Source of the DNA: an uncultured Planctomycetaceae bacterium
Lineage (GTDB): Bacteria > Planctomycetota > Planctomycetia > Pirellulales > Lacipirellulaceae
Length of the DNA: 64,000 bases
Reading direction: 5' to 3'
NCBI GenBank assembly: GCA_964549545.1
Contig: CAZJWY010000001.1
Location: 23,122-87,121, forward strand
In this document: positions 40,333-51,567 of the stretch, one piece after another
Position numbering within the stretch: position 1 is the first letter of the stretch
How the letters are laid out: every line of letters starts with the position of its first letter
Program-made: the position numbers and the translations under genes
The notes under the pieces: generated by a model
Told to the model about the DNA's origin: nothing
Seen by the model: the letters and a program-made list of their open reading frames with translations, nothing else
The model's database searches: none

Positions 40333-40361
40333 TTGGCCAAAGTCGCGATTCAGCGTAAATT
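40333..40361 (+). promoter_or_regulatory. Putative sigma-70 promoter now driving only the truncated tRNA-Leu 5' half
   Basis: TTGGCC-17 nt-TAAATT, 15 nt upstream of the tRNA fragment. Confidence 0.4.
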
Positions 40362-40375
40362 GTAAATAAGAGCTT

Positions 40376-40415
40376 TGGGGATGTGGCGGAATTGGCAGAC
40401 GCGCTGGACTTAGGA
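40376..40415 (+). repeat. attL: 40-bp direct repeat = 5' half of tRNA-Leu (acceptor stem to anticodon loop)
   Basis: Identical to 51363-51402 (tGGGGATGTGGCGGAATTGGCAGACGCGCTGGACTTAGGA). Identity stops right after the anticodon loop. Confidence 0.9.
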
Positions 40416-41033
40416 AAAGGCGATTGGTCCACTAATCCACGGGAAACACGAGAATTCCCGTATCTTTTCGCGATACGACACCCGCTAGAACCCGCTGAAT
40501 CGAACTCATTGGGTGTCGTGGTGTCGGCTCGAAAAAACACGACACCCGCCCTGCACTGACAGGACACTTAGTCAGGTAACGAGCCCGACAATCGCCGTGC
40601 ATAGGGGGAAGCGCACAACGACTGCCGGGCTGAGTCTGTCTTCCATGCTAATCACCGGGGGCGAGGTATCCAGCTTGTCTGATTTTTGAATTTTTTTTTC
40701 GGAGTCTCGATTTCCAAGTAGGGCGGCGGTCCGGGCAAACTATCAGGAGTTGCTAGATCGGGTTCGCTGGAAACATGCAGTTGCTAGGTAGGGGTTATAT
40801 CTCACCCCCCTAGCCGCCACGAGGCCCGGGGGTCCGGTAAAATTTTCCAAACTCAAACATAAACCGATACAGAATTATTCGATCGGTTCTAGCTTGGCTA
40901 TCGAACCATGCCAGTAGAGGCGGGGGTCTGCCCCGTGCATGTATCTGCTCTGCCCTGATTCACGCAAGGTACGCAACGCTCTAGCCGCGACTAACGCGCG
41001 GTAGCAGCAGGGAGAGAACGTAGACGATCAGCG

Positions 41034-41219
41034 CTAACTGAACCGGGCTACGATTGCGTCCAGGTCGGTCTGATCGACAGAGAACATAGTGCCGTGCATG
41101 CAATGGCTCTCCGGCTTAAGGCCGTTCTCTTGCGCCCAGATATGGACGTTCTCACCATTGCGAACACCAGTTAAGGCAACAATCTCTCTAATCGTGCGAA
41201 GAGTTTTCATAACCTTCAT
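41034..41219 (-). CDS. Small HTH protein (AlpA/Xis/Cro-like), 61 aa
   Basis: LRTIREIVALTGVRNGENVHIWAQ resembles an AlpA/excisionase-type HTH. Divergent from the 41446 gene. Confidence 0.5.
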   Translation of the reverse strand: MKVMKTLRTIREIVALTGVRNGENVHIWAQENGLKPESHCMHGTMFSVDQTDLDAIVARFS

Positions 41220-41345
41220 TATAAACCATGCCCTTCAAGTAATCTGTCACGCCGGGCGCGTTGTGTAAATCTTGGGTGTCGGCCGATCGGTCGACGTGAA
41301 ACGCGGGAAATACCGTCGGCGATGTTTCAGTTAGCGCGCATATCT

Positions 41346-41390
41346 TAGGCTTTAGCCTACGCTTGACAATCGGGTTTCTCGGATTAGTCT
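41346..41390 (+). promoter_or_regulatory. Palindromic operator candidate plus promoter for the 41446 operon
   Basis: Perfect palindrome TAGGCTttAGCCTA (41346-41359) abuts TTGACA (41363-41368)-16 nt-TAGTCT (41385-41390). Confidence 0.4.
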
Positions 41391-41445
41391 TGAGATAGAC
41401 GCCAACAATCGGCGTTCGATCACAACTAATGAGGGGACAACGAAG

Positions 41446-41835
41446 ATGAAGCGTGTGAGCGACGGCAAGACCTACTATGAAATTGACGATGACGGGAGCG
41501 TATCGGCGTGTGACGCCCAAGGCGAACCGATTCGGGAGTTCAACCCCGATGACGCTTTCCGCTTAGCGGCGTTGCGCGAACAGGAAGTAGCCGATTGGCT
41601 GGTAGCCGAAGATTTGAAATCGACGCCGGAAACCCGTTTACTAGCGGAGAACGCGTTGCGGCTAGGCCGTCTAAACGCGCGGCTAATCCCGATTACGGAA
41701 GCGATTGCAGACGCTTGTATAAATCGCGGGATGACAGTCGTCGAACCGGCTGCCAGAAAAAACCTTGCCGACATCGCGACAGAGGCGTACAGCGTCGTGA
41801 ATGAGCTGAGAAAGCAAACAGGCGGGGAAAGCTAA
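41446..41835 (+). CDS. Hypothetical protein (129 aa)
   Basis: GAGGGG Shine-Dalgarno upstream. The serine recombinase ATG follows 2 nt after its stop. No motif recognised. Confidence 0.6.
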   Translation: MKRVSDGKTYYEIDDDGSVSACDAQGEPIREFNPDDAFRLAALREQEVADWLVAEDLKSTPETRLLAENALRLGRLNARLIPITEAIADACINRGMTVVEPAARKNLADIATEAYSVVNELRKQTGGES

Positions 41836-41837
41836 CC

Positions 41838-42428
41838 ATGAACAAATACGTCGCGGTATATCCGCGTGTTTCGACTAAGCGCCAAGACCTAGCTAGCCAG
41901 ATGCCTGACCTGGAACACTGGGCAGCAGCACAAGGCGAGCCCGTGCAATGGTACAAAGACAAGTTTACCGGCAAGACACTGGAGCGGCCGGGATGGCAGA
42001 AGCTACAGGCCGCGATTGATCGGGGCGAAGTAAGCAAAGTGGTTGTATGGCGACTCGACCGACTAGGGCGAACCGCCAAGGGACTAACGGCGCTATTCGC
42101 AGACCTACAGGAACGCAAGGTAGGGCTAGTGTCGTTGAAGGATGGCATCGACCTATCGACAGCGGCCGGGCGCATGATGGCGAACGTGCTGGCGTCGGTG
42201 GCTCAGTTTGAAACGGAACTGCGCGCGGAGCGTGTGCGCGCTGGTCAGGCTGCTGCAAAATCCAAGGGCAAAGTCATTGGCGGTGGCAAAGCAGGCAGGC
42301 GAGTGCGCTTGACTGAGGAAAAGGAAGACGCCGTTAAGCGTCTGCACAAGTCGGGCGCGTCGATTACAAAGATAGCCAAGACGCTTCAACTGTCACGCCC
42401 TACGGTTTACAAGGTGCTGGACGGCTAG
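41838..42428 (+). CDS. Small serine recombinase (resolvase/invertase family) with C-terminal HTH
   Basis: YPRVSTKRQD (catalytic Ser), VVWRLDRLGR, ...AQFETELRAERV..., C-terminal SITKIAKTLQLSRPTVYKVL. Confidence 0.9.
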   Translation: MNKYVAVYPRVSTKRQDLASQMPDLEHWAAAQGEPVQWYKDKFTGKTLERPGWQKLQAAIDRGEVSKVVVWRLDRLGRTAKGLTALFADLQERKVGLVSLKDGIDLSTAAGRMMANVLASVAQFETELRAERVRAGQAAAKSKGKVIGGGKAGRRVRLTEEKEDAVKRLHKSGASITKIAKTLQLSRPTVYKVLDG

Positions 42429-42484
42429 CGCGCCCAGCAAACATACTTTTCAGTTTCACCTTTTCACCTATTGGAGCCTCATCT

Positions 42485-42709
42485 ATGAATGACACCACAA
42501 GCAAACTCTGTGTTCACACCATCATGGTCGATTCGCCAGAGGGGATGGTCGCCGTGACTATGCGCGACGGGCGAGTCATGTTGGACTACCACGAGATTAG
42601 CGTCTTTGGCGAACCGCACTGGCCGGATGAAACCAGCACTCTAGCCGGGCTCTTAGGCTGCACTGAGCCAGAAGCCCGCGCCCTTGTCGGCATGCTAACA
42701 GATATGTAG
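42485..42709 (+). CDS. Hypothetical protein (74 aa)
   Basis: GGAG 8 nt upstream of the ATG; followed by a canonical intrinsic terminator. Confidence 0.55.
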   Translation: MNDTTSKLCVHTIMVDSPEGMVAVTMRDGRVMLDYHEISVFGEPHWPDETSTLAGLLGCTEPEARALVGMLTDM

Positions 42710-42732
42710 GCTCCATTGCCTACACTTGCTAG

Positions 42733-42768
42733 CCGTCCACTCGATTCGTCGAGTGGACGGTTTTTTTT
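42733..42768 (+). terminator. Intrinsic terminator
   Basis: 12-bp perfect stem CCGTCCACTCGA / TCGAGTGGACGG, TTCG tetraloop, then T8. Confidence 0.85.
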
Positions 42769-42816
42769 GTGCGCCGGGAAGTCTGGCAGGCGGTCGAGAC
42801 GGGCGGGTTATATACA

Positions 42817-42933
42817 CTTGGCAAACCACTCGGCACCACTGGTCACCATGGGTCGCACCTAGGCAAACCACTGGCTACCTTTGGTTCACCACGACGGCAC
42901 CTTGGCAAACCATTGGGATAACTCTGGCATTCC
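42817..42933. repeat. 2.5 tandem 42-bp units = five or six TGG-N(3-4)-CCA sites phased every 21 bp
   Basis: Sites start at 42819, 42840, 42861, 42882 and 42903, plus a degenerate one at 42925. Core is CT(T/A)GGCAAACCA(C/T)T alternating with TGGT(T)CACCA. Confidence 0.75.
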
Positions 42934-43050
42934 GCGAACATGCTACCCGTTCCCTACCGGCCGCGAAGTTTGAAGCGTCCCGACTAATCCGAGCCATCGC
43001 CGATAACGACTGGCGAGTTCCCGAAAATACCACTCTCTGAGGCAGACACG

Positions 43051-46000
43051 ATGGACATTAGCAAATTCGATTTCAGCGCCTTGGACGCGGCTGACGCCGC
43101 GCCAGCAACGAGCATGGACTTCAGCGCACTCGACCTGCCCGAAGATGACGCTTCCGTATATTGGGGCGGCCGTCAAGTTTCCAAGTCGGCGATCTTGAAA
43201 GCAGCCGAACAACGCGGCGTCTCGCCCGATGCGATCATGCGTCTCGATACGTGGCAAGGCAAGACCGAAGATTGGTTAGCTAAGCGACCACTCGGCAACG
43301 TCGCTTTGCGAGTGACCGAAGGTTTCCAAGGTGTTGCTGACACAGTAGTTGGCGGTGTGGCACGGGCGGCTGGCTACCCCGATGTAGCTCGTAACGTCGC
43401 GGCGAACCGTCGCAAGCGCGAAGAATTCTTGTCAATGGTTGAGAAGGGCGGCGACATTGAACGAACGCTCGGTCAACGTGGCGCGCGCATCTTTAACAAC
43501 AGTGTGCAGTCAGCCACCGAAGTTGGGTTGGTCGGCATCAGTAAGGCACCGCTCGCAGTGTATTCCTATGTCGTCGGCTCTGAATTCGAGCGAGCGATGG
43601 ACGATGGCGAACAGCACGGCTTAGAAGGCAGTGACCTTGTTTCTTATGCTGGCCGTCGTGCCGCTATTGAAGGCACCATGTCTCTGCTAATGGGCAAGTT
43701 AGCAAAGAAAGCTGGCGCATATACGCTGGCGGAAAGTGTTAACCCCGCCGCTGGCAACGCCATTCGTAAGTTTCTCGACGCGCCCGACGTTAAGAGCAAA
43801 CTAGTCGCGGCCTCTAAGAGTCTTGGTGGCATGGCTGCCGAAGGTGTCGAGGAACTCCTAACGAACGGCGCTATCCAGGCTAACGACCTGTCTTTCGGCG
43901 TGCGTGACGGTTTCGATTTCAATGAACTGCTCGACGCCGGTTTGTCAGGCGTGACGATGCGCGGCATTAGTCATGTTCGTGATCTGCATGGCGTGCTGAA
44001 TGATTTCGTCAAGAACAAGTTGCCCCACGTAGCCGAGGGCACGAACGCCGCTATGGTTGACTTGGAACGTGGTGTCAACCCGTTCCTTGTGAAAGACCTG
44101 GACGGTGCCGAGTTCGATCGGCAGACGGGCCGCGAGGGCACGACCCCCGAATTCCGTCTGTCTTACCGCGATGCTCTCAATCATTACATGTCGGAAGCCC
44201 GAGCCAACGGCGAGACGGGCTCTCTCGAACGATTAGAGCGGGATGCGCTTGCCATTCACGAGGAAGAACGTCAACGCACTGCGCGCATTCAAGCGAGCAA
44301 GGATAAGGCAGCCGCACAAAAGCAAAACGGCGTGGTAGGCGAGTCGCAAGTAAAAGTAGAGCCGGTGGAAGCGCACGAGCAACCGTCACTTACTGCCGAC
44401 CAACGGGCTACGTTTAACCTGCGTGACTTTGAGGCATTGGTCGTAGAGCCGAAGATTGGTGAGGCTCTGACGCAACCCCAACCCAAGGTAAACCCGTATC
44501 TCCGCGCCCCGTGGGAATCGGAAACACGCGGCCAGCGGCGCGTACGTCGGTTATCCGAGCAAGTCGAGACACACAAGGCGACTATTAAGACATTGCGCTC
44601 CGAAGCGGTCGCCAACAAGCGACTAACGCGCGAGCAACAACAAGCAGCGCTTGAACTGGTGCGGGAAAACATCCCTGCCGAAGATCGTCACAAGTATTTT
44701 CAAGGCGTCATCGAAAGCACTCGCCCGAGCGCCATTAACAAACTGCTGGACCGCGTAGATACCTACATTGGCCAACGTGACCACAGTTTAGCCGTGCAGA
44801 ACCTCAAGGAATCTATCCGCAAGGCTACTAATTTACGCCCTGAATTCGCTCAGCAGGTGCAAAAGTCGCTCAATTCCATCGACCTGAAACGCTTTCGGCA
44901 TCGGGAAGTAGCCGAGACGCTACGGCAATGGCAGCAGGACAACCCGCAAGCCATTATCTCGCCCAAAGAGCAAGGGCTTATCGACCGGCTGGCGCAACAA
45001 AACATCCATAGCATGACGGCAGACGATGTACGGGCGCTGGCGTCACACGTCGAAAGCCTTGCTTACCAAAGCAAGCTGAAAGATACGCTGATCGGTAACG
45101 CGGAAGCGGCAAGCGTGCGCGATACCGCCGACAACATAGTTCGCGAGATTGCGACGGCCCCCCGTAAGGAAATGAAGTCGGACAGTCTGCTAAGTACGTC
45201 GGATGATAACACAACGCGCACGATCGGCAGCTTGGCGCTGCACGAGGTGGCCGAACGCCCCGAGGTAACGCTACGCTCGCTCAGTTCCGAGTTGAGCAAC
45301 CAGATATACGAACCAATCCGCAAGGCGCGCAGCCGGTTCAAGTTGCGCATGGCCAATACGCGCCAATTTATGTCCGACCTGTTTAACAGTGTCGGATTGG
45401 AACATGAGAATTCACTTGCCAAGAGCGTGGCCTATCGAACCGGGCTTCCGAGTACGAAGCTGGAAGGTTGGCGGAGTCACTTGCGAGAGATAAACGGCAC
45501 TCGATTGACACGCGGCGAAGCATTGTGGCTGGCTCTGTCGTCAAAAGACCCTGACGGCATTAAAAACCTGATGGAACATGGCGCGGAGTTGAGCCAAGGC
45601 CGCAAGCTGGCACCCGTCGACCCGCATACACTTGCCCACCTGTTTGATTTCATCGGTCCCGAGGGCGAAACGTGGGTTAATGGCGCGTTCGAGCACCTTA
45701 ATACTTATGTCATTGACGGTGTGAACACGGCTAATGAAAAGATGACCGGCCGACCGCTTACTGAGAAGCGCAATGTTGTTCCGCTTGTGCTGGCCGATGA
45801 CGATTACGCCAAGTTGGTCAGCAAGGGGCGAGCGGGCGAAGTAGAAGCCTTGGCCGATAGTTACGGTCACCTCAAACACCGCGAGGGCGGCGGCCGGGCT
45901 TTGCGTATTCCCGACAACATGGACGCGATTGATATGGTTATGAGCCATGCCGACCGCATGCACCGTTTTGCCGAGTACAGCGTGCCCGCTCGCAATGCTG

Positions 46001-47307
46001 AACTGTTATTGAACGACGCCGATCTCAAGCAGTCGATCAAGGAAAAGAACGGTCACAAAGGTTATGACCAGATTGTCGACGCCGTGCGCTCTGAGGTGGC
46101 GGGCTATCCGCCCGTGGACGGTGCCACGAAGAATATAGCCGCCTTGAATCACGCCGCAGCCGGTGCGTTGATCGTCGCCAAGATACCCGTTATGGCCAAG
46201 CAGCCGCTCGATATGTTGGTCGCTGCCGCAATGGATGAAGGTGGCATAAGCCACTTGGGCAAGGGTCTCGACGAGTTAGCGGCTCGTGGTCCTGCCGCCG
46301 TGCTCACGGAAATGAAGTCGGTACTAGGTCAGCACTCCGGCGAATGGCAGGGTCGTTACGAGGCAGGCAACTACTCGGGCGAGGTGACGAGTGGGTTTAT
46401 CCGCCAGCGTAGCCACTTCCGCCCGTCAACCTTGATCGAGCATGGCGCGGACTCTTTGCAAAAGGCGGAAATGCTAACCGCCGCCATGCCGAACTACTTG
46501 GCAGCCAAGCAAGCTGCCCGTGAACATTTCCGGTTGCAAGCGGGCGACCACAAGGTTTATCTCGACACGCCGGAATGGATAGAGCACGTTGTCGACGGCT
46601 GGGAACGCAAAACAGTGCGCGGTTCTAATTCATCGGATGGCATGGAATTGAGCGGCGCGCTGCGGTTCGCCAAGAAAAACCCGCTCTACAGTCTGGTGGC
46701 TAACTTCTACAACCAAGCCGGTAAAATCTATTCGCTGTTCCCGATGGCTCAGCAGGAGTATCAGAAGGGCAACCACAAGCGGGCCGGTCAGATTGCGGCC
46801 ACCGGCTTAGGTGTCGTGTTGGCCGACGCCATTTTGAGCACGGCACTGGCGACGGGCGACCAGGAAAAGAAACATTCCTTGCCATATCGCACGCTCGCCC
46901 GGTTCGTCGGCGGAATAGCCAGTTTGTTCCCGGCAGGCGGTCAAGAACTTGCCAAGCAAGTTATCGCCCCCGCGTTCGGCATGTCCCGCAGCGGCGGCAA
47001 CCCCATCATGTTGCTTGATCTTGGAATAGGCGCAACGCGCGGCATAACGTCGCTTGCTACGCAGTTGTTGGCCGACGCCGATCGTTCTCTGAAACCGCAA
47101 GACATGTACAAGGCGTGGATTGATATAGGCTACTCCGCTGGCCCACTTCTCGCAATCCCAACGCCCGGTTTCATCGACCTCGGCAAGCGCATTAAAGCAG
47201 GCACGCCCTTCCCCGGTCTCACCGAAGCCGAGCCCAAGCCGGAGCCATTTCGGGAAACGCCGAAACGCCATCGCAAGAGTTTATCAGGTCTGTTTGACAA
47301 CCACTAA
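43051..47307 (+). CDS. Giant ORFan protein (1418 aa)
   Basis: Uninterrupted 4.26-kb ORF with GAGG upstream. N-terminal duplicated DFSALD motif. Long helical middle. Gly/Ala-rich hydrophobic segments in the last ~170 aa. No catalytic motif recognised. Confidence 0.85.
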   Translation: MDISKFDFSALDAADAAPATSMDFSALDLPEDDASVYWGGRQVSKSAILKAAEQRGVSPDAIMRLDTWQGKTEDWLAKRPLGNVALRVTEGFQGVADTVVGGVARAAGYPDVARNVAANRRKREEFLSMVEKGGDIERTLGQRGARIFNNSVQSATEVGLVGISKAPLAVYSYVVGSEFERAMDDGEQHGLEGSDLVSYAGRRAAIEGTMSLLMGKLAKKAGAYTLAESVNPAAGNAIRKFLDAPDVKSKLVAASKSLGGMAAEGVEELLTNGAIQANDLSFGVRDGFDFNELLDAGLSGVTMRGISHVRDLHGVLNDFVKNKLPHVAEGTNAAMVDLERGVNPFLVKDLDGAEFDRQTGREGTTPEFRLSYRDALNHYMSEARANGETGSLERLERDALAIHEEERQRTARIQASKDKAAAQKQNGVVGESQVKVEPVEAHEQPSLTADQRATFNLRDFEALVVEPKIGEALTQPQPKVNPYLRAPWESETRGQRRVRRLSEQVETHKATIKTLRSEAVANKRLTREQQQAALELVRENIPAEDRHKYFQGVIESTRPSAINKLLDRVDTYIGQRDHSLAVQNLKESIRKATNLRPEFAQQVQKSLNSIDLKRFRHREVAETLRQWQQDNPQAIISPKEQGLIDRLAQQNIHSMTADDVRALASHVESLAYQSKLKDTLIGNAEAASVRDTADNIVREIATAPRKEMKSDSLLSTSDDNTTRTIGSLALHEVAERPEVTLRSLSSELSNQIYEPIRKARSRFKLRMANTRQFMSDLFNSVGLEHENSLAKSVAYRTGLPSTKLEGWRSHLREINGTRLTRGEALWLALSSKDPDGIKNLMEHGAELSQGRKLAPVDPHTLAHLFDFIGPEGETWVNGAFEHLNTYVIDGVNTANEKMTGRPLTEKRNVVPLVLADDDYAKLVSKGRAGEVEALADSYGHLKHREGGGRALRIPDNMDAIDMVMSHADRMHRFAEYSVPARNAELLLNDADLKQSIKEKNGHKGYDQIVDAVRSEVAGYPPVDGATKNIAALNHAAAGALIVAKIPVMAKQPLDMLVAAAMDEGGISHLGKGLDELAARGPAAVLTEMKSVLGQHSGEWQGRYEAGNYSGEVTSGFIRQRSHFRPSTLIEHGADSLQKAEMLTAAMPNYLAAKQAAREHFRLQAGDHKVYLDTPEWIEHVVDGWERKTVRGSNSSDGMELSGALRFAKKNPLYSLVANFYNQAGKIYSLFPMAQQEYQKGNHKRAGQIAATGLGVVLADAILSTALATGDQEKKHSLPYRTLARFVGGIASLFPAGGQELAKQVIAPAFGMSRSGGNPIMLLDLGIGATRGITSLATQLLADADRSLKPQDMYKAWIDIGYSAGPLLAIPTPGFIDLGKRIKAGTPFPGLTEAEPKPEPFRETPKRHRKSLSGLFDNH

Positions 47308-47347
47308 GAACCACTAGTCCCCCCTTTTCTTTCGGAGAGTAAACGCA

Positions 47348-48154
47348 ATGAGTACAGAGCCAGAATCACCGCAGCAGAATGACACCCCAGACACTTCGCA
47401 GCAGATATACGGCGGTTCGCTTGCCGGTGGCATAGCGGCATCGCTTGGCGCGAAGAAAGAGCCAAAGCCGTACACCGATCAGGGGCGTGCCTACATTCAC
47501 GCCATGGCTGACGCGACACTTGACCACCGGGAAGCCAAGGCGGCGGTGGAGCGGGATGTTTTCTCCACTGCCATCGAATCCTACAACGCGGCAACAAACG
47601 GCACGAGCAACATCCACGAGGCCTTGCGCGCCGAAGCGGCCGAAGTCGGCGAAGTCAGCAACAAGGATTTCGATGAAGCCCGGTTCGCCAATGAACTCGG
47701 ATTTCAGGCGGACCAATTCAAGCAACTTGGTTTCGAGTCTTACGACGATGCACACTCGTCCGTATCGAAGATGCTTCACAACATGACCGAGAGTGTCGGC
47801 GATGATGGCATTTTGGAAGACTACGCCGCTTTAATGGGCGAGCCCGAGTTGCGGCAGCGGTTGCACACGGAAATAAACTCTTGGCGGTCCCCACGGTTCG
47901 GGCGATCGACTGAGGAGCGCACCGAAGACCAACAATATCACGTCAATCAGATTATCGGCGATATGATTCGCCTGACAAAAGCCCTCGTTCGGCAAGGTCG
48001 ACCGGCCCCGGTCGTTGAGCAAGCATTGCGCCGGGCGCGGTTGGTACGTGATGCCGACTACAAGCCTTCTCACCGCGACCACAAGCCGGAGAAGATCAGC
48101 ACGGCTAATCAGTTCCGAAACATTCACGAACTGTACCAGAACAACCCCTTCTAA
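47348..48154 (+). CDS. Hypothetical protein (268 aa), acidic, with N-terminal glycine-zipper-like segment
   Basis: GGSLAGGIAASLG near the N-terminus. GGAGAG lies about 10 nt upstream of the ATG. Co-directional, 40 bp after the giant ORF. Confidence 0.7.
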   Translation: MSTEPESPQQNDTPDTSQQIYGGSLAGGIAASLGAKKEPKPYTDQGRAYIHAMADATLDHREAKAAVERDVFSTAIESYNAATNGTSNIHEALRAEAAEVGEVSNKDFDEARFANELGFQADQFKQLGFESYDDAHSSVSKMLHNMTESVGDDGILEDYAALMGEPELRQRLHTEINSWRSPRFGRSTEERTEDQQYHVNQIIGDMIRLTKALVRQGRPAPVVEQALRRARLVRDADYKPSHRDHKPEKISTANQFRNIHELYQNNPF

Positions 48155-48209
48155 AACGTCTGTTCCCCGAGGGGCACGGAGGCCCATCTTTTCATAGAGA
48201 GCGAAAACA

Positions 48210-48533
48210 ATGACCCCTGAACATTTTGACGGTTACCTGATTCACGACACGCCACTAGGGCCAGCTATTCGGTTCAAAGGCGGCAAGATTATGCAGTCCG
48301 GCCGCATTGTCGACGGCCGAACTGTGCCATCGGGCCGGTACATGCTCGTCATGCCCAGTCGCCATGACCCTGAATCGCGCCGGTTGCGTTCGTTGCTGGC
48401 CAACATCGGCCGATGGACGGAAGACGATGGCGGCGGCGATTACCGCTTAACCTTCGCTGCCGATGATTTCCACTTAATTGCCGAAATAGTGCAGCCGTTC
48501 AAGGCGGATTACGTCGGCAACTACAACATTTAA
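48210..48533 (+). CDS. Small paralog 1 of 4 (107 aa)
   Basis: Shares the IRFKGGKIMQSGRIVDG...PS ... RW..D ... F ... IAEIV pattern with 48558, 48940 and 49227. Confidence 0.7.
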   Translation: MTPEHFDGYLIHDTPLGPAIRFKGGKIMQSGRIVDGRTVPSGRYMLVMPSRHDPESRRLRSLLANIGRWTEDDGGGDYRLTFAADDFHLIAEIVQPFKADYVGNYNI

Positions 48534-48557
48534 CTTTTCTGAAAGGAACAAACAGCC

Positions 48558-48917
48558 ATGGGCAAGCCCTTCAATTTTGTAGAGACGTACCCTGAGTACG
48601 AATTTGTTGGCGACGTATCGCGTAGCCCGCACATCCCTTTTCGATACGGCAAGATTTATCAACCCGGCCGCATTACTGGCGATCGTTTCGAGCCATCGGA
48701 TAGCAACTTCCTCAACTTGGTATTATCGACGCGCCGGGATAGCCCGGATTGCAATAGCATACGCGCGTTGCTTGAGTCGAATCAGGTCGGGCGGTGGGTT
48801 ACCGATACTGTCGGGCGGCCGGAACAGGTATTCGAGTTCCATCGAAAACATTTTGACCGCGTTGCCGAGATTGTGAAAGCGAACAAGCGCGCCGACGTTG
48901 GCGCGGACAGTATCTAA
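48558..48917 (+). CDS. Small paralog 2 of 4 (119 aa)
   Basis: IPFRYGKIYQPGRITGDRFEPS; closest to paralog 4. Confidence 0.75.
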   Translation: MGKPFNFVETYPEYEFVGDVSRSPHIPFRYGKIYQPGRITGDRFEPSDSNFLNLVLSTRRDSPDCNSIRALLESNQVGRWVTDTVGRPEQVFEFHRKHFDRVAEIVKANKRADVGADSI

Positions 48918-48939
48918 CTTTTCTGAGAGGTGAACAACT

Positions 48940-49224
48940 ATGCCTGATTGGTACGTGCCAAAAGAGTTCTCATTCGTGCAAGGCAATACGATGACTTTCA
49001 AGTATGGGGAGGTTTGGTTTCCCCGCGACTATCCCGGCGAGGCTCGCGTTTACATCCAAGGCCACGATGACGCCGACGCGGAGTTGTCTTTGCTGCGGTC
49101 ACGGCTAATGGGCTACTCCTTCGCGATTGGGAGCTACGGTAGTTTTCAAGAGTTACGGTTTGCCCCGGTTATGGCACCGATGTTGGCGCGGACAATATCT
49201 AACTTTTCTGAAAGGAACAAATAG
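48940..49224 (+). CDS. Small paralog 3 of 4 (94 aa), divergent and possibly frameshifted at the 3' end
   Basis: MTFKYGEVWFPRDYPG. The family-like terminus ...GTDVGADNI* is encoded in another frame (49143-49202). Confidence 0.5.
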   Translation: MPDWYVPKEFSFVQGNTMTFKYGEVWFPRDYPGEARVYIQGHDDADAELSLLRSRLMGYSFAIGSYGSFQELRFAPVMAPMLARTISNFSERNK

Positions 49225-49226
49225 CT

Positions 49227-49565
49227 ATGAGCAAGCCAGCAACATTCGCAGAGAAATACCACGACTACGAAGTCATTGACGACCCCAAAAACGGGCCATA
49301 CATCCCCTTTGAGTTCGGCAAGATTTATCAACCGGGCCGCGTTGTCGACGGTCAATTCGAGCCCTCAAACGGCGGGCAACTCGAACTGACCATATCGAAT
49401 CGCGACGACAACGCCGACTGCAAGGCCATGCGACACGCGCTGGCGTGGGAGGGCCGTCGGATTAGCTGCGATGACGGGTCAATGCGAGCGATGACATTCC
49501 ATCGCAATAACTTCAACCGCATTGCCGGGATTGTGAAACCACAAAAACGATCGGTTGCGGTTTAG
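49227..49565 (+). CDS. Small paralog 4 of 4 (112 aa)
   Basis: IPFEFGKIYQPGRVVDGQFEPS ... FHRNNFNRIAGIVKP. Confidence 0.75.
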   Translation: MSKPATFAEKYHDYEVIDDPKNGPYIPFEFGKIYQPGRVVDGQFEPSNGGQLELTISNRDDNADCKAMRHALAWEGRRISCDDGSMRAMTFHRNNFNRIAGIVKPQKRSVAV

Positions 49566-49591
49566 TCCCACTCATTCCCACAGAGGTAATC

Positions 49592-50212
49592 ATGCGACTG
49601 CGCCACTTAGCCAATCAGCTTAAGACTATCGCCTACGTTCTCGATAGTTTCCGCACGAACGGGGTTTCGTCGCTCTCCGCCCCTGTCGTGCTGGCCGATT
49701 TAACTAAGCTGGCGCAGTTGCTTTTCTCTGTCGACCTACTTCTAGCCGATCGTGGGCCAGCCGATATACGCCATCGGCTAACGCGATGCCGTGACGCTGT
49801 GACTGTGTATGTCGCGGAAGTCACCACCGCCGCCATGCTTGGCGATGTTGAACAGGCGAGCAAGCCGACAAGGCATCGGCTAGCTGCTGCCCTTGGGCAG
49901 ATTGAGGATTGCACTCGAACTCTGCTTAAGTTGCTACGTCCGAAAAGATCGAAGCAGCGCAGCGGTTCAGAGTCGCCCGTTACACTTAGTCCGCCCCAGG
50001 TTGCCAAGGCCCTGAGAGTGAGCCCCGACACTGTGCTCAGTTGGATTCGTACGAAGCAGTTACCCGCTGCGAACGTGGCGACTGGCCCGCGTCCGAGGTG
50101 GGTCGTACAGCGGCCCGACCTGGATACATTCCTACAATCACGACGGCCGCAATCGCAGCCGGCACGTAAGAGAAGTAAGCCAGTCGGGGGCTTTAGAAAA
50201 TATCGAGACTAG
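49592..50212 (+). CDS. Xis/MerR-like HTH protein with ~130-aa N-terminal extension
   Basis: C-terminal LSPPQVAKALRVSPDTVLSWIRTKQLPA...RWVVQRPDLDTFL resembles the excisionase-family HTH. 20-bp convergent overlap with int. Confidence 0.65.
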   Translation: MRLRHLANQLKTIAYVLDSFRTNGVSSLSAPVVLADLTKLAQLLFSVDLLLADRGPADIRHRLTRCRDAVTVYVAEVTTAAMLGDVEQASKPTRHRLAAALGQIEDCTRTLLKLLRPKRSKQRSGSESPVTLSPPQVAKALRVSPDTVLSWIRTKQLPAANVATGPRPRWVVQRPDLDTFLQSRRPQSQPARKRSKPVGGFRKYRD

Positions 50213-51281
50213 GCAGCTTGCCAAGATACCACTGGCGTACGTGGTTCGTGCATTGAAGTAGCTGCTCATCGTAGATCAGTTGGCGGTACGTTGCTGACAT
50301 ATCGTCGCTCGCCGGTACATGGCCCATGACAAGATCAACCACAGCTTGAGTTACGCCGCTTGTGCCTGCGATTGTCTCGAATGTTCGCCGTAACGAATAG
50401 AACTCTGTCACGTCTTTGACATAGAAGTCGTCGACCAGTTTGCGAAAGTGGTAAGCTATGTTGCGCCTGTTCCACTTGCCCGCGAATACCTTGCCGTTGT
50501 TCGTGGCGGTGCGGAGTGCCTTGGCAGTTTCGGGCCAGAGTGGGCTACGCCGTTCGATACCAGTCTTCTCACGGTGGAAGTTATGCCAGCCGTTCTTTAG
50601 GTCTACCCGCTCCGTGGGCAGGTCGCAGCAATCCTTTGGCCCGAACCCGCAGTTGATCCCCAGCAAGATCATACCGCGTATCTCGCCCTTGGAAGTCTTC
50701 ACAATCTCGCGTAGCTGCTTCGACGTGAACAGCCGCACCTTGCTGTTTTTGATTTGCCGTAGGATACGTGCGGCCGGTGCGCGTAGCTCGTCTTCAAAGT
50801 CTAGCGTGACCCGAAACTTACGGGCCATCTTTAGTATCATGCGGGCGACTGTCAGCCGTCGCTTGATCGTGACCGCCCCCAGTTGCTTTGTCTTACCCTG
50901 CCCTAATGCTTCGCGCAGTTGTCCGAAGTCGGCCGGTGTCAACGAGTCTAGTCGGCGGTGCTTGCCCCAAGCGGCCATGACATCGCACACGGTCTCGTAC
51001 TCGTCATAGGTGACCTGAGAGATTTCCCCCAGTCTCAGGGCGCGATCCTTTGGCCCGAGGAAGGTGTCGAGTAGATCGGCAACCTTCGGCTCGTCCGTGG
51101 GGGGACGTAGGCCAGCATAGAGGTAGTCACGCTGCCGGAGGAATGCCGATAAGGCTTCGCCGGAGTCTGCCCACGGGCCGAAGTATTTCAATTTCCCCCG
51201 TATCTTGCAGCACCATTGCCCGTTGTTATGGGCAAACAGGGGGAACTCGTGGTATGGTTTATCTGGCTTCTGCATACTCAA
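50193..51281 (-). CDS. int: Tyrosine recombinase / integrase
   Basis: C-terminal YSLRRTFETIAG ... LVMGHVPASDDMSATY (R..H/Y-x-x-R...H...Y pattern). N-terminal GQWCCKIRGKLKYFGPW motif, as I recall it from planctomycete integrases. Adjacent to attR. Confidence 0.9.
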   Translation of the reverse strand: MSMQKPDKPYHEFPLFAHNNGQWCCKIRGKLKYFGPWADSGEALSAFLRQRDYLYAGLRPPTDEPKVADLLDTFLGPKDRALRLGEISQVTYDEYETVCDVMAAWGKHRRLDSLTPADFGQLREALGQGKTKQLGAVTIKRRLTVARMILKMARKFRVTLDFEDELRAPAARILRQIKNSKVRLFTSKQLREIVKTSKGEIRGMILLGINCGFGPKDCCDLPTERVDLKNGWHNFHREKTGIERRSPLWPETAKALRTATNNGKVFAGKWNRRNIAYHFRKLVDDFYVKDVTEFYSLRRTFETIAGTSGVTQAVVDLVMGHVPASDDMSATYRQLIYDEQLLQCTNHVRQWYLGKLPSLDIF

Positions 51282-51327
51282 TCCTAGCTCCGGGTGTCGG
51301 CGCGGGTGTCGTTAGGATTAAGTATGT

Positions 51328-51356
51328 TTGCCAAAAGTCAAAAAACAACGTAAATT
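51328..51356 (+). promoter_or_regulatory. Element-borne promoter-like sequence upstream of the intact tRNA-Leu
   Basis: TTGCCA-17 nt-TAAATT ending 7 nt before tRNA position 1. Same architecture as 40333-40361. Confidence 0.45.
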
Positions 51357-51363
51357 TAAGCCT

Positions 51364-51448
51364 GGGGATGTGGCGGAATTGGCAGACGCGCTGGACTTAG
51401 GATCCAGTTCCTTCACCGGAGTGCAGGTTCAACTCCTGTCATCCCCAC
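51364..51448 (+). tRNA. tRNA-Leu (anticodon UAG), type II with long variable arm
   Basis: Acceptor GGGGATG/CATCCCC. Anticodon stem CTGGA/TCCAG with loop CTTAGGA. Variable arm TTCCTTCACCGGAGT. T-arm GCAGG-TTCAACT-CCTGT. CCA not fully encoded. Confidence 0.9.
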
Positions 51449-51567
51449 CTGTTTTTAAGGCGTTTTTGGAATCATTGGTTTCACCAGCCGGCGGAGTGTT
51501 ACCCAAAGTGTTACCCACTGCCGCCCACAACGCTTCGGCCGTCGCCTGGGCGTTCCGGCCAACGTAA

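Follow-up and report, generated by a model that had tools for sequence, protein, structure and literature searches.

An integrative island at a tRNA-Leu gene

The window analysed here is a 64,000-nt (64-kb) stretch of contig CAZJWY010000001.1 from an uncultured Planctomycetaceae bacterium, and our subject is an 11-kb island at positions 40376 to 51402 of it. The island encodes a tyrosine integrase, an excisionase-like protein, a small serine recombinase and a 1418-amino-acid (aa) protein whose homologues are encoded in the virion modules of uncultured tailed phages. The segment is probably a mobile, phage-derived mini-element. Its attachment (att) repeats, integrase, excisionase, arm-type-like sites and empty sites in relatives bear out a first-pass annotation of the sequence in which the segment was called a non-autonomous integrative island.

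A repeat finder detected a perfect 40-bp direct repeat with copies at 40376-40415 and 51363-51402, which are 10,987 bp apart from start to start. The only tRNA gene of the window, tRNA-Leu(UAG) (tag), was called by ARAGORN and Rfam at 51364-51449 on the + strand. The repeat extends from base -1 of this tRNA to the 3' edge of its anticodon loop and is the 5' half of the tRNA, as had been recognised in the first pass. The displaced 5' half forms the attL core (40376-40415, + strand), a point where the relatives run straight into a full tRNA, and the attR core (51363-51402) lies inside the intact tRNA (joint feature 51363-51449, + strand). An Rfam search of the island returned this tRNA as its sole match. 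The G+C content of the element was 0.56, compared with 0.572 for the window.

The left flank of the island carries housekeeping genes for YidC, MnmE and an M28 peptidase, and the right flank carries genes for a small-domain methyltransferase, ThuA and RecQ. Relatives were collected by scanning the GTDB representative genomes, which do not include the window's own genome, with the M28 peptidase. The scan yielded Pirellulales and Lacipirellulaceae genomes, the best match being 68% identical. In five of them the peptidase gene was followed directly by tRNA-Leu(tag), giving the kind of empty site envisaged in the first pass: L013 (the Pirellulales metagenome-assembled genome LejiaD_60_33, JBBDWY010000064.1), L015, L016, L054 (Bythopirellula polymerisocia) and L056 (Lacipirellula limnantheis). 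No second copy of the tRNA half was present in any fetched relative. Because the M28 peptidase gene directly precedes tRNA-Leu in the relatives, the 11-kb block is an insertion, and it has a plausible attP. At the same locus in L013, a dense array of 27 tRNA genes, 25 of them on the minus strand, occupies 4.4 kb (L013:11315-15730) directly after the M28 peptidase/tRNA-Leu(tag) site, where the window has the island.

With the 5' half of the tRNA displaced, the element lies upstream of the intact gene and must supply its promoter. A promoter-like sequence pattern borne by the element, TTGCCA-17-TAAATT (51328-51356, + strand), ends 7 nt before the tRNA, and a chromosomal TTGGCC-17-TAAATT upstream of attL (40333-40361) resembles it. 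The upstream regions of the relatives were unrelated. The element seems to have brought along a copy of a tRNA-Leu promoter that stems from a bacterium closely related to this host.

Recombination genes and operon structure

The integrase, the Xis-like helix-turn-helix (HTH) protein and the small serine recombinase noticed in the first pass were all confirmed by Pfam and PHROG matches. The 362-aa tyrosine integrase (50193-51281, - strand; Pfam Phage_integrase, 1.7e-9; PHROG_1, 3.3e-25) is convergent with the excisionase gene, and the two overlap by 20 bp. The excisionase-like protein has 206 aa and a C-terminal HTH domain of the excisionase type (49592-50212, + strand; Pfam HTH_17, 6.9e-10; PHROG 66, 3e-8; TIGR01764, 2e-4). 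The serine recombinase, of the resolvase/invertase type, has 196 aa (41838-42428, + strand; Pfam Resolvase, 1.2e-39; HTH_7, 3.7e-10; PHROG 125, 1.4e-53).

The excisionase-like gene is the last gene of the large-protein operon, which consists of the genes for the large protein, a 268-aa protein, four proteins of ~100 aa and the excisionase-like protein, separated by gaps of 2-55 bp. With xis in this operon, excision would be coupled to the synthesis of a virion-type protein, which is not the usual arrangement of xis in temperate phages.

Candidate arm-type integrase sites were found at both ends of the island. The 9-mer CGGGTGTCG has five exact copies in the window, four of them no more than 140 bp away from an att core. 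The integrase-proximal P arm carries two direct copies (51291-51311, + strand). The P' arm carries three copies within 40476-40548, two of them exact and inverted (40476-40484 and 40540-40548, both - strand) and one with a single mismatch (40510-40518, + strand). This layout is that expected of arm-type sites, for which the motif is a candidate.

The open reading frame (ORF) list placed every ORF of the island where the first-pass annotation had it. Library profile searches of all these ORFs against Pfam, PHROGs, PADLOC and NCBIfam recognised only the integrase, the excisionase and the resolvase, and gave nothing significant for the ORFs of 1418, 268, 129, 74, 61 and ~100 aa. In the same searches no capsid, portal, terminase, tail, lysis, replication or conjugation gene was recognisable in the island, nor was a relaxase or a feature resembling an origin of transfer (oriT) recognised with Pfam, PHROGs and PADLOC. 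PADLOC-DB v2 gave weak HTH-level matches only (E >= 0.003), of the CasR, mad1 and CARF models to the HTH domains of the recombinase and Xis. The Walker A motif [AG]xxxxGK[ST] occurs in no ORF of the island; the first pass had reported no GxxxxGK[ST] in the cargo ORFs. Its further statement that the cargo is without recognisable phage machinery holds for capsid, terminase, portal, replication and conjugation genes and fails for the 1418-aa ORF, which belongs to a family encoded in phage virion modules.

A large protein related to phage virion proteins

The 1418-aa ORF (43051-47307, + strand) makes up 39% of the element. On the evidence of its homologues, their gene context and a structure model, it encodes an all-alpha protein, homologous to a giant protein from the virion module of tailed phages that are uncultured. 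Its layout comprises an N-module (residues ~20-380), a C-module (residues ~490-1190) and a hydrophobic, Gly-rich tail, with a hydrophobic segment near residue 1248. The protein has few relatives. Only five were found in 5.8 billion clustered proteins, all of ~1400 aa and with 39-66% identity; a metagenome scan and a search of 1.84 billion representatives added a few more, giving about ten close, full-length relatives with 27-66% identity.

A profile of residues 1-1190 reached further and matched 425 representative proteins. In this search the N-module was found standing alone in other large proteins, and the C-module formed the C-terminus of giant proteins of 2-5 kaa (thousand aa) that carry RadC, SNF2 and Helicase_C, Eco57I/N6 methylase, ddrB-ParB, Zeta toxin, GGDEF and GHKL domains. 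Such a set of domains is the signature of polyvalent proteins, which are packaged into virions or delivered by conjugation (Iyer, Burroughs, Anand, de Souza, Aravind 2017; PMC5512222). A Foldseek comparison of the model with BFVD gave 32 matches at E <= 1e-3, the best at 4e-9, with template modelling (TM) scores of only ~0.2. The matched proteins were later segments of huge phage proteins annotated as ART-PolyVal, PolyVal ADP-ribosyltransferase, large polyvalent protein-associated domain and MuF-C. Intermediate homologues matched PHROG 22602, "virion structural protein" (5e-43), and one remote homologue matched PHROG 342, "internal virion protein with endolysin domain". Judging from these relationships, the 1418-aa ORF is very probably an effector-less member of the family of internal or ejected phage virion proteins. 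As its chassis also forms the C-terminus of virion-packaged polyvalent proteins, it would most likely be an ejected internal virion protein. Another remote homologue, P0032 (L100:10001-14257, on the 1.28-Mb contig ERZ26692762), contains the C-module only.

We compared the island copies of the protein with six phage-context proteins, in which 190 alignment columns were invariant. The copy in the window's island and that in a second island (L003, described below) each kept 184 of the 190 (97%), and leave-one-out controls with the phage proteins kept 80-90%. Because 184 of the 190 invariant positions were retained, purifying selection acts on both island copies as it does on those of the phages.

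Phage loci encoding the large protein

At least eight independent contigs carry the large gene within a phage virion module (L001/L002, L006, L007/L009/L010, L008/L011, L093/L094, L096 and L099). We clustered the genes of the phage contigs into families, to which the "fam" numbers refer. The virion block runs fam7 (1000-1250 aa), fam16, fam11 (~230 aa), fam2 (~380 aa), the large protein and fam5 (~140 aa). The fam2 stop codon overlaps the start of the large gene, and fam2 and fam5 always adjoin the large gene in the phage loci, with reading frames that abut its own. On the opposite strand, the block is followed by a portal-like gene of ~590 aa, a terminase large subunit gene of ~645 aa, small genes and a gene for DNA polymerase A. 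PHROG matches of the neighbours of the large gene included terminase large subunit (3e-15), tail spike/virion structural protein (1e-27) and minor tail/tail tubular protein (1e-14). These phages are divergent tailed phages whose gene order recalls that of podoviruses. No match came up when 50,697 GenBank phage records were searched by tblastn with the large protein or when IMG/VR was scanned, so the lineage is absent from both collections.

Among these phages, genes for a sigma-70-family factor (PHROG 351, 2e-58), DNA polymerase A and an N6/N4 methyltransferase were observed (L096:15607-16917, - strand; L007:16044-16704; L099:21022-23028).

The large gene never adjoins int or xis in the phage contigs. 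Remnants of other phage genes in the element were searched for by tblastn and blastn with all ORFs and DNA of 15 phage loci. No fam2, fam5 or fragment of either was found in the window's island or in L003, and DNA similarity to the phage contigs was absent outside the large gene. The element thus contains no collinear remnants or pseudogenes of other phage modules in this search. The phage fam5 proteins (122-152 aa) were considered as homologues of the ~100-aa island paralogues and rejected after comparison.

A second island with a related gene set

The large gene occurs inside an integrase element only in the window's island and in L003, which together with L004 and L005 comes from three SRA runs. 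Both islands share the order large protein, ~100-aa ORF, HTH_17 excisionase and convergent integrase, and the L003 resolvase is 40% identical to that of the window's island. The integrases of the two islands are unrelated beyond the family level. A 279-aa gene lies upstream of the large gene in L003, and its 268-aa counterpart lies downstream of the large gene in the window's island; because the position of this gene differs, the island gene set has been kept through rearrangement. The 99-aa ORF of L003 was the top match of the hidden Markov model (HMM) of the window's paralogues among 2020 ORFs, with E-values of only 0.03-0.07.

The large proteins of the two islands are not each other's closest relatives according to the identity matrix and the tree. 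The copy in the window's island is 66% identical to that of phage L001 and the L003 copy is 56% identical to those of phages L008/L011, and the two island copies are only 43% identical to each other. Such closeness to different phages is what one would expect of islands that are each matched to a helper of their own.

Neither a repeat nor a complete tRNA was found when both ends of the L003 island were sought. Contigs from two SRA runs, L003 (15746-15806) and L005, stop at the same base in a T-arm-like GGTTCGAGTC, ~115 bp past the integrase start. This shared end is probably an assembly break at an att/tRNA gene (tDNA) repeat.

Orphan genes and non-coding features

The 268-aa orphan protein (47348-48154, + strand) has its only homologue in the 279-aa protein of L003 (BLASTP, 27% identity, E 2e-12). 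A word-based search of 5.8 billion proteins found these two members of the family only, and a PDB search gave no match. Matches of this ORF to AEP_C962R (E 0.014) and to a spanin (E 0.0045) were far below the curated cut-offs and were not taken as evidence.

The tandem array of ~100-aa genes (48210-49565, + strand) contains three clear paralogues and one decayed copy. Of the four paralogues proposed in the first pass, those of 107, 119 and 112 aa (48210-48533, 48558-48917 and 49227-49565, + strand) stood up in phmmer comparisons (1e-10 to 1e-26), and the 94-aa ORF (48940-49224, + strand) did not, as it had no match to the paralogue HMM. The last 42 nt of the 94-aa ORF share 90% identity with the DNA at the 3' end and in the intergenic region of the 119-aa gene, in another frame. 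Since it reads the DNA of the 119-aa gene in a shifted frame, it is probably a decaying copy. The AlphaFold2 model of one paralogue was decent (predicted local distance difference test, pLDDT, 75; predicted TM score, pTM, 0.70), with five strands, a helix, two strands and a helix. The paralogues had no match in the PDB (best Foldseek E 0.06, TM < 0.4), and no homologues were found elsewhere in a word-based search.

The left operon consists of a 129-aa ORF, the resolvase gene and a 74-aa ORF. The 129-aa orphan ORF (41446-41835, + strand) has no family matches, and its stop codon lies 2 nt before the resolvase start. The divergent 61-aa ORF (41034-41219, - strand) is a possible small regulator. 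The divergent arrangement of these two ORFs described in the first pass was found as such; the HTH assigned to the 61-aa protein was not, its best match being PHROG 925 at E = 0.07. The 74-aa orphan ORF (42485-42709, + strand) lies between the arms of a perfect 12-nt inverted repeat, TGGACGGCTAGC/GCTAGCCGTCCA (42418-42429/42728-42739). The operon is closed by a strong intrinsic terminator with a 14-bp stem and T8, seen in the sequence at 42731-42770 (+ strand). The left arm of the inverted repeat overlaps the stop codon of the serine recombinase gene and the right arm is within the terminator stem; the repeat could be the boundary of an invertible segment or a coincidence. A 28-nt inverted repeat (42373-42400/42959-42986) was also considered as such a boundary and dismissed as probably a chance occurrence, with 71% complementarity and as one of 43 similar pairs.

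Downstream of the terminator and upstream of the large gene, a repeat search found three 16-bp direct repeats, YTWGGCAAACCAYTSG, at an exact spacing of 42 bp (42817-42916, + strand). The copies start at 42817, 42859 and 42901, and the three exact matches are clustered and unique to this spot in the window, a count reached in none of 100 shuffles. No 42-bp-phased motif of this kind was found in the phage loci. The repeats could be regulator-binding, packaging or origin sites, and the 104-aa ORF that spans this stretch is probably no real gene.

A stretch of ~620 bp at the island's left end (40416-41033) has no convincing ORF and no Rfam match; it contains an A/T run (40680-40705) and motifs like those of arm-type sites.

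Possible lifestyle of the island

The main cargo of the island is phage virion machinery that curated libraries miss, in an unusual arrangement, and half of the cargo is orphan. The first-pass annotation had raised two candidates for this cargo. A defence or toxin-immunity system gained no support, PADLOC being negative, and a very divergent virion or satellite module gained support from the context of the large-protein family and its relatedness to polyvalent proteins. We regard a phage hitch-hiker, or satellite, as more likely than a new defence system. Our preference, which is tentative and falls short of a firm conclusion, is for a minimal satellite or hitch-hiker of a phage that brings a version of the helper's internal virion protein of its own, encoded in one transcript with the excisionase.

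The tyrosine integrase inserts the element into tRNA-Leu(UAG) at the region of the anticodon loop, approaching from the 5' side, and integration swaps the 5' half and promoter of the tRNA for the element's own copies. In a satellite, helper infection or induction would switch the operon on, probably by a signal from a related phage at the phased YTWGGCAAACCAYTSG repeats, and Xis and Int would excise a circle. We infer that replication, capsid, terminase and tail would be provided by the helper and that the lineage-matched internal virion protein of the element would enter the particles. After delivery, packaged head-full concatemers could be resolved into monomers by the small serine recombinase, which both islands have conserved, the ~40-kb length of the helper genome corresponding to ~3.6 units of 11 kb. 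The orphan proteins may have a role as well. We would propose only with hesitation that the two islands represent an undescribed satellite family of Planctomycetota, which has dispensed with capsid, packaging and replication genes and carries its own helper-matched, excisionase-coupled ejected protein and a concatemer-monomerising recombinase. Such a satellite would take control of DNA delivery, or of the proteins that the particle carries, and not of the capsid size.

Several observations weigh against the satellite reading. No helper prophage was found elsewhere in the 64-kb window and no helper phage was identified. Of the hallmarks of characterised satellites, neither a packaging signal nor a gene for a small terminase, a replication initiator or capsid remodelling was recognisable in library searches, and we know of no precedent for a satellite with its own internal virion protein. 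The virion location of the large protein is suggested by synteny and remote homology. Its AlphaFold2 model (residues 1-1190) is almost wholly helical and weak (pLDDT 62, pTM 0.34), and the PDB gave nothing at E <= 10 in a profile search and a best E of 0.1 with Foldseek. We know of two islands of this kind only, and the L003 contig stops at the att region. No non-coding motif common to the island and the phage contigs was found. A temperate relative carrying the resolvase and 268-aa genes may exist: some of the phage loci came from contigs of ~40 kb and ~52 kb, and ~24 of ~40 kb (~60%) of the phage genomes was read. The gene for P0032, the C-module homologue, lies on a bacterial chromosome, within a long run of virion-like genes that all point the same way, apparently a full-size prophage.

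Some of these points would suit a prophage relic, that is, a temperate member of the phage group reduced by internal deletions to both att sites, int/xis, the recombinase and one structural gene that is still intact by chance or because the deletions are recent, with no life cycle of its own. The first pass had held that a match of the cargo to phage structural proteins would make the island a degraded prophage. The match exists, as the large gene is otherwise a gene of phage virion modules and its remote homologue in L100 lies in the prophage-like block; the decaying paralogue, the ~620 non-coding bp at the left end and the ~60% share of the phage genomes inspected also fit a relic. The consequence drawn from it did not hold, since no other phage gene or remnant is present and the divergent L003 has the same set. 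Because there is no trace of fam2 or fam5, not even as pseudogene fragments, and no phage DNA similarity outside the large gene, and because L003 has a matching gene set, the island is not a simple deletion relic. In L003, the same minimal set accompanies a large protein of 43% identity, a partly different order and an unrelated integrase. Further points against a relic are the perfect 40-bp att repeats, the intact arm motifs, the 97% retention of phage-invariant residues in the island copies and the fact that the large gene never adjoins int/xis in the phage contigs. We therefore consider a relic unlikely.

The element could also be maintained for the exclusion of phages, in which the large protein, together with the 268-aa protein and the small paralogues, would interfere with infection by related phages. 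The large protein would then either act as a dominant-negative or decoy version of the internal virion protein and so poison the progeny, or stop DNA from entering at the membrane. Such a role may coexist with satellite behaviour. An intact copy under purifying selection and 66% identical to a phage's protein is similar enough to co-assemble with the partners of the phage protein, yet the island lacks these partners (fam2 and fam5); the C-terminus has a hydrophobic segment near residue 1248, and tandem amplification of small genes is a pattern of arms-race loci. Host protection is also frequent among characterised satellites (PMC10803314). No gene of the island has a PADLOC, Pfam or NCBIfam defence signature, however, co-transcription with the excisionase points to expression at mobilisation rather than to constitutive protection, and we judge exclusion quite improbable as the main explanation. 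It is very unlikely that the island is an integrative mobilisable element whose large polyvalent-type protein moves with the DNA by conjugation, through a type IV secretion system (T4SS) supplied in trans. About 40% of polyvalent proteins are encoded on conjugative elements (PMC5512222), and the RadC, ParB, Zeta toxin and SNF2 domains of the remote homologues are typical of both contexts. However, islands aside, all full-length homologues with informative surroundings are beside terminase, portal-like or tail genes and none is by a T4SS or relaxase, and the island itself yielded no recognised relaxase or oriT-like feature in Pfam, PHROGs and PADLOC searches.

To our knowledge, satellites and hitch-hikers are known almost only from Proteobacteria and Firmicutes, where they are defined by hallmark modules for replication, small terminase and capsid remodelling. 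If the satellite reading is true, a Planctomycetota island with an internal virion protein as its sole phage-like gene would point to a different exploitation of phages, at the ejected cargo or at DNA delivery. It would also offer a functional handle on the polyvalent "chassis", for which no structure or role is established. Even as a relic or an exclusion island, the element ties a 1400-aa orphan protein family to a lineage of uncultured Pirellulales phages.

Comparison with known systems

The island resembles the minimal satellites (PICMI, PICI, P4-like, PLE and cfPICI) in being small, in encoding an integrase and an excisionase or AlpA-type HTH protein, and in lacking capsid, terminase, portal and tail genes; it is a small island with an integrase and a regulator/excisionase and without a full virion or lysis set. 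It differs from the described satellite families in its serine recombinase gene and in a 4.3-kb gene homologous to that of a helper-type virion protein, and we know of no described family with either its own internal virion protein or a serine recombinase as a feature. Unlike satellites, the island has no recognisable small terminase, pac/cos element or capsid-size redirection with which to hijack packaging. It also has neither a replication module of its own nor a defined origin, the sole candidate cis element being the three 42-bp-phased repeats. At 11 kb, it is about 1/4 of the putative helper genome and, like PICMI, lacks capsid-remodelling genes (PMC10803314). The core proteins of PICMI support excision and replication, whereas no replication protein or primase is recognisable in the island, and PICMI integrates next to fis, whereas the island is in the 5' half of a tRNA.

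As an integrated element, the island is like the tDNA islands of Islander. It has an intact tDNA and a co-oriented displaced fragment on the correct, upstream side, a tyrosine integrase gene within the interval (50193-51281), an unoccupied site among related genomes and a crossover centred on the anticodon loop. Islands with a 5' fragment are a minority in Islander, 159 of 3919 (PMC4383910). The integration module is therefore ordinary, though of this minority type.

The phage loci of the large protein can be compared with T7 gp14-gp15-gp16. The position of the large gene is compatible with that of gp16, as it follows a large tail-like gene and two or three smaller genes (~160, 230 and 380 aa) and precedes a small gene. 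The protein itself is large (~1400 aa), almost wholly alpha-helical and equipped with a hydrophobic C-terminal segment. Unlike gp16, it has no sequence or structure match to solved internal core proteins and no lytic transglycosylase (SLT) domain. From gene order alone, the large-protein phages would have podoviral morphology.

A further parallel is with the polyvalent proteins (PMC5512222). The C-module (~490-1190) is homologous to their C-termini, and both are encoded among virion genes, so that the homology of non-catalytic modules and the virion-gene context are shared. Polyvalent proteins combine at least two effector or conflict domains; in the 1418-aa protein no Pfam, NCBIfam or PADLOC domain and no Pfam LPD family was matched, which leaves it without a recognisable effector as "chassis only". 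Relative to the polyvalent chassis, it has an additional N-module. As far as homology and context can indicate, the large protein represents a new, effector-less relative of the polyvalent and internal virion proteins.

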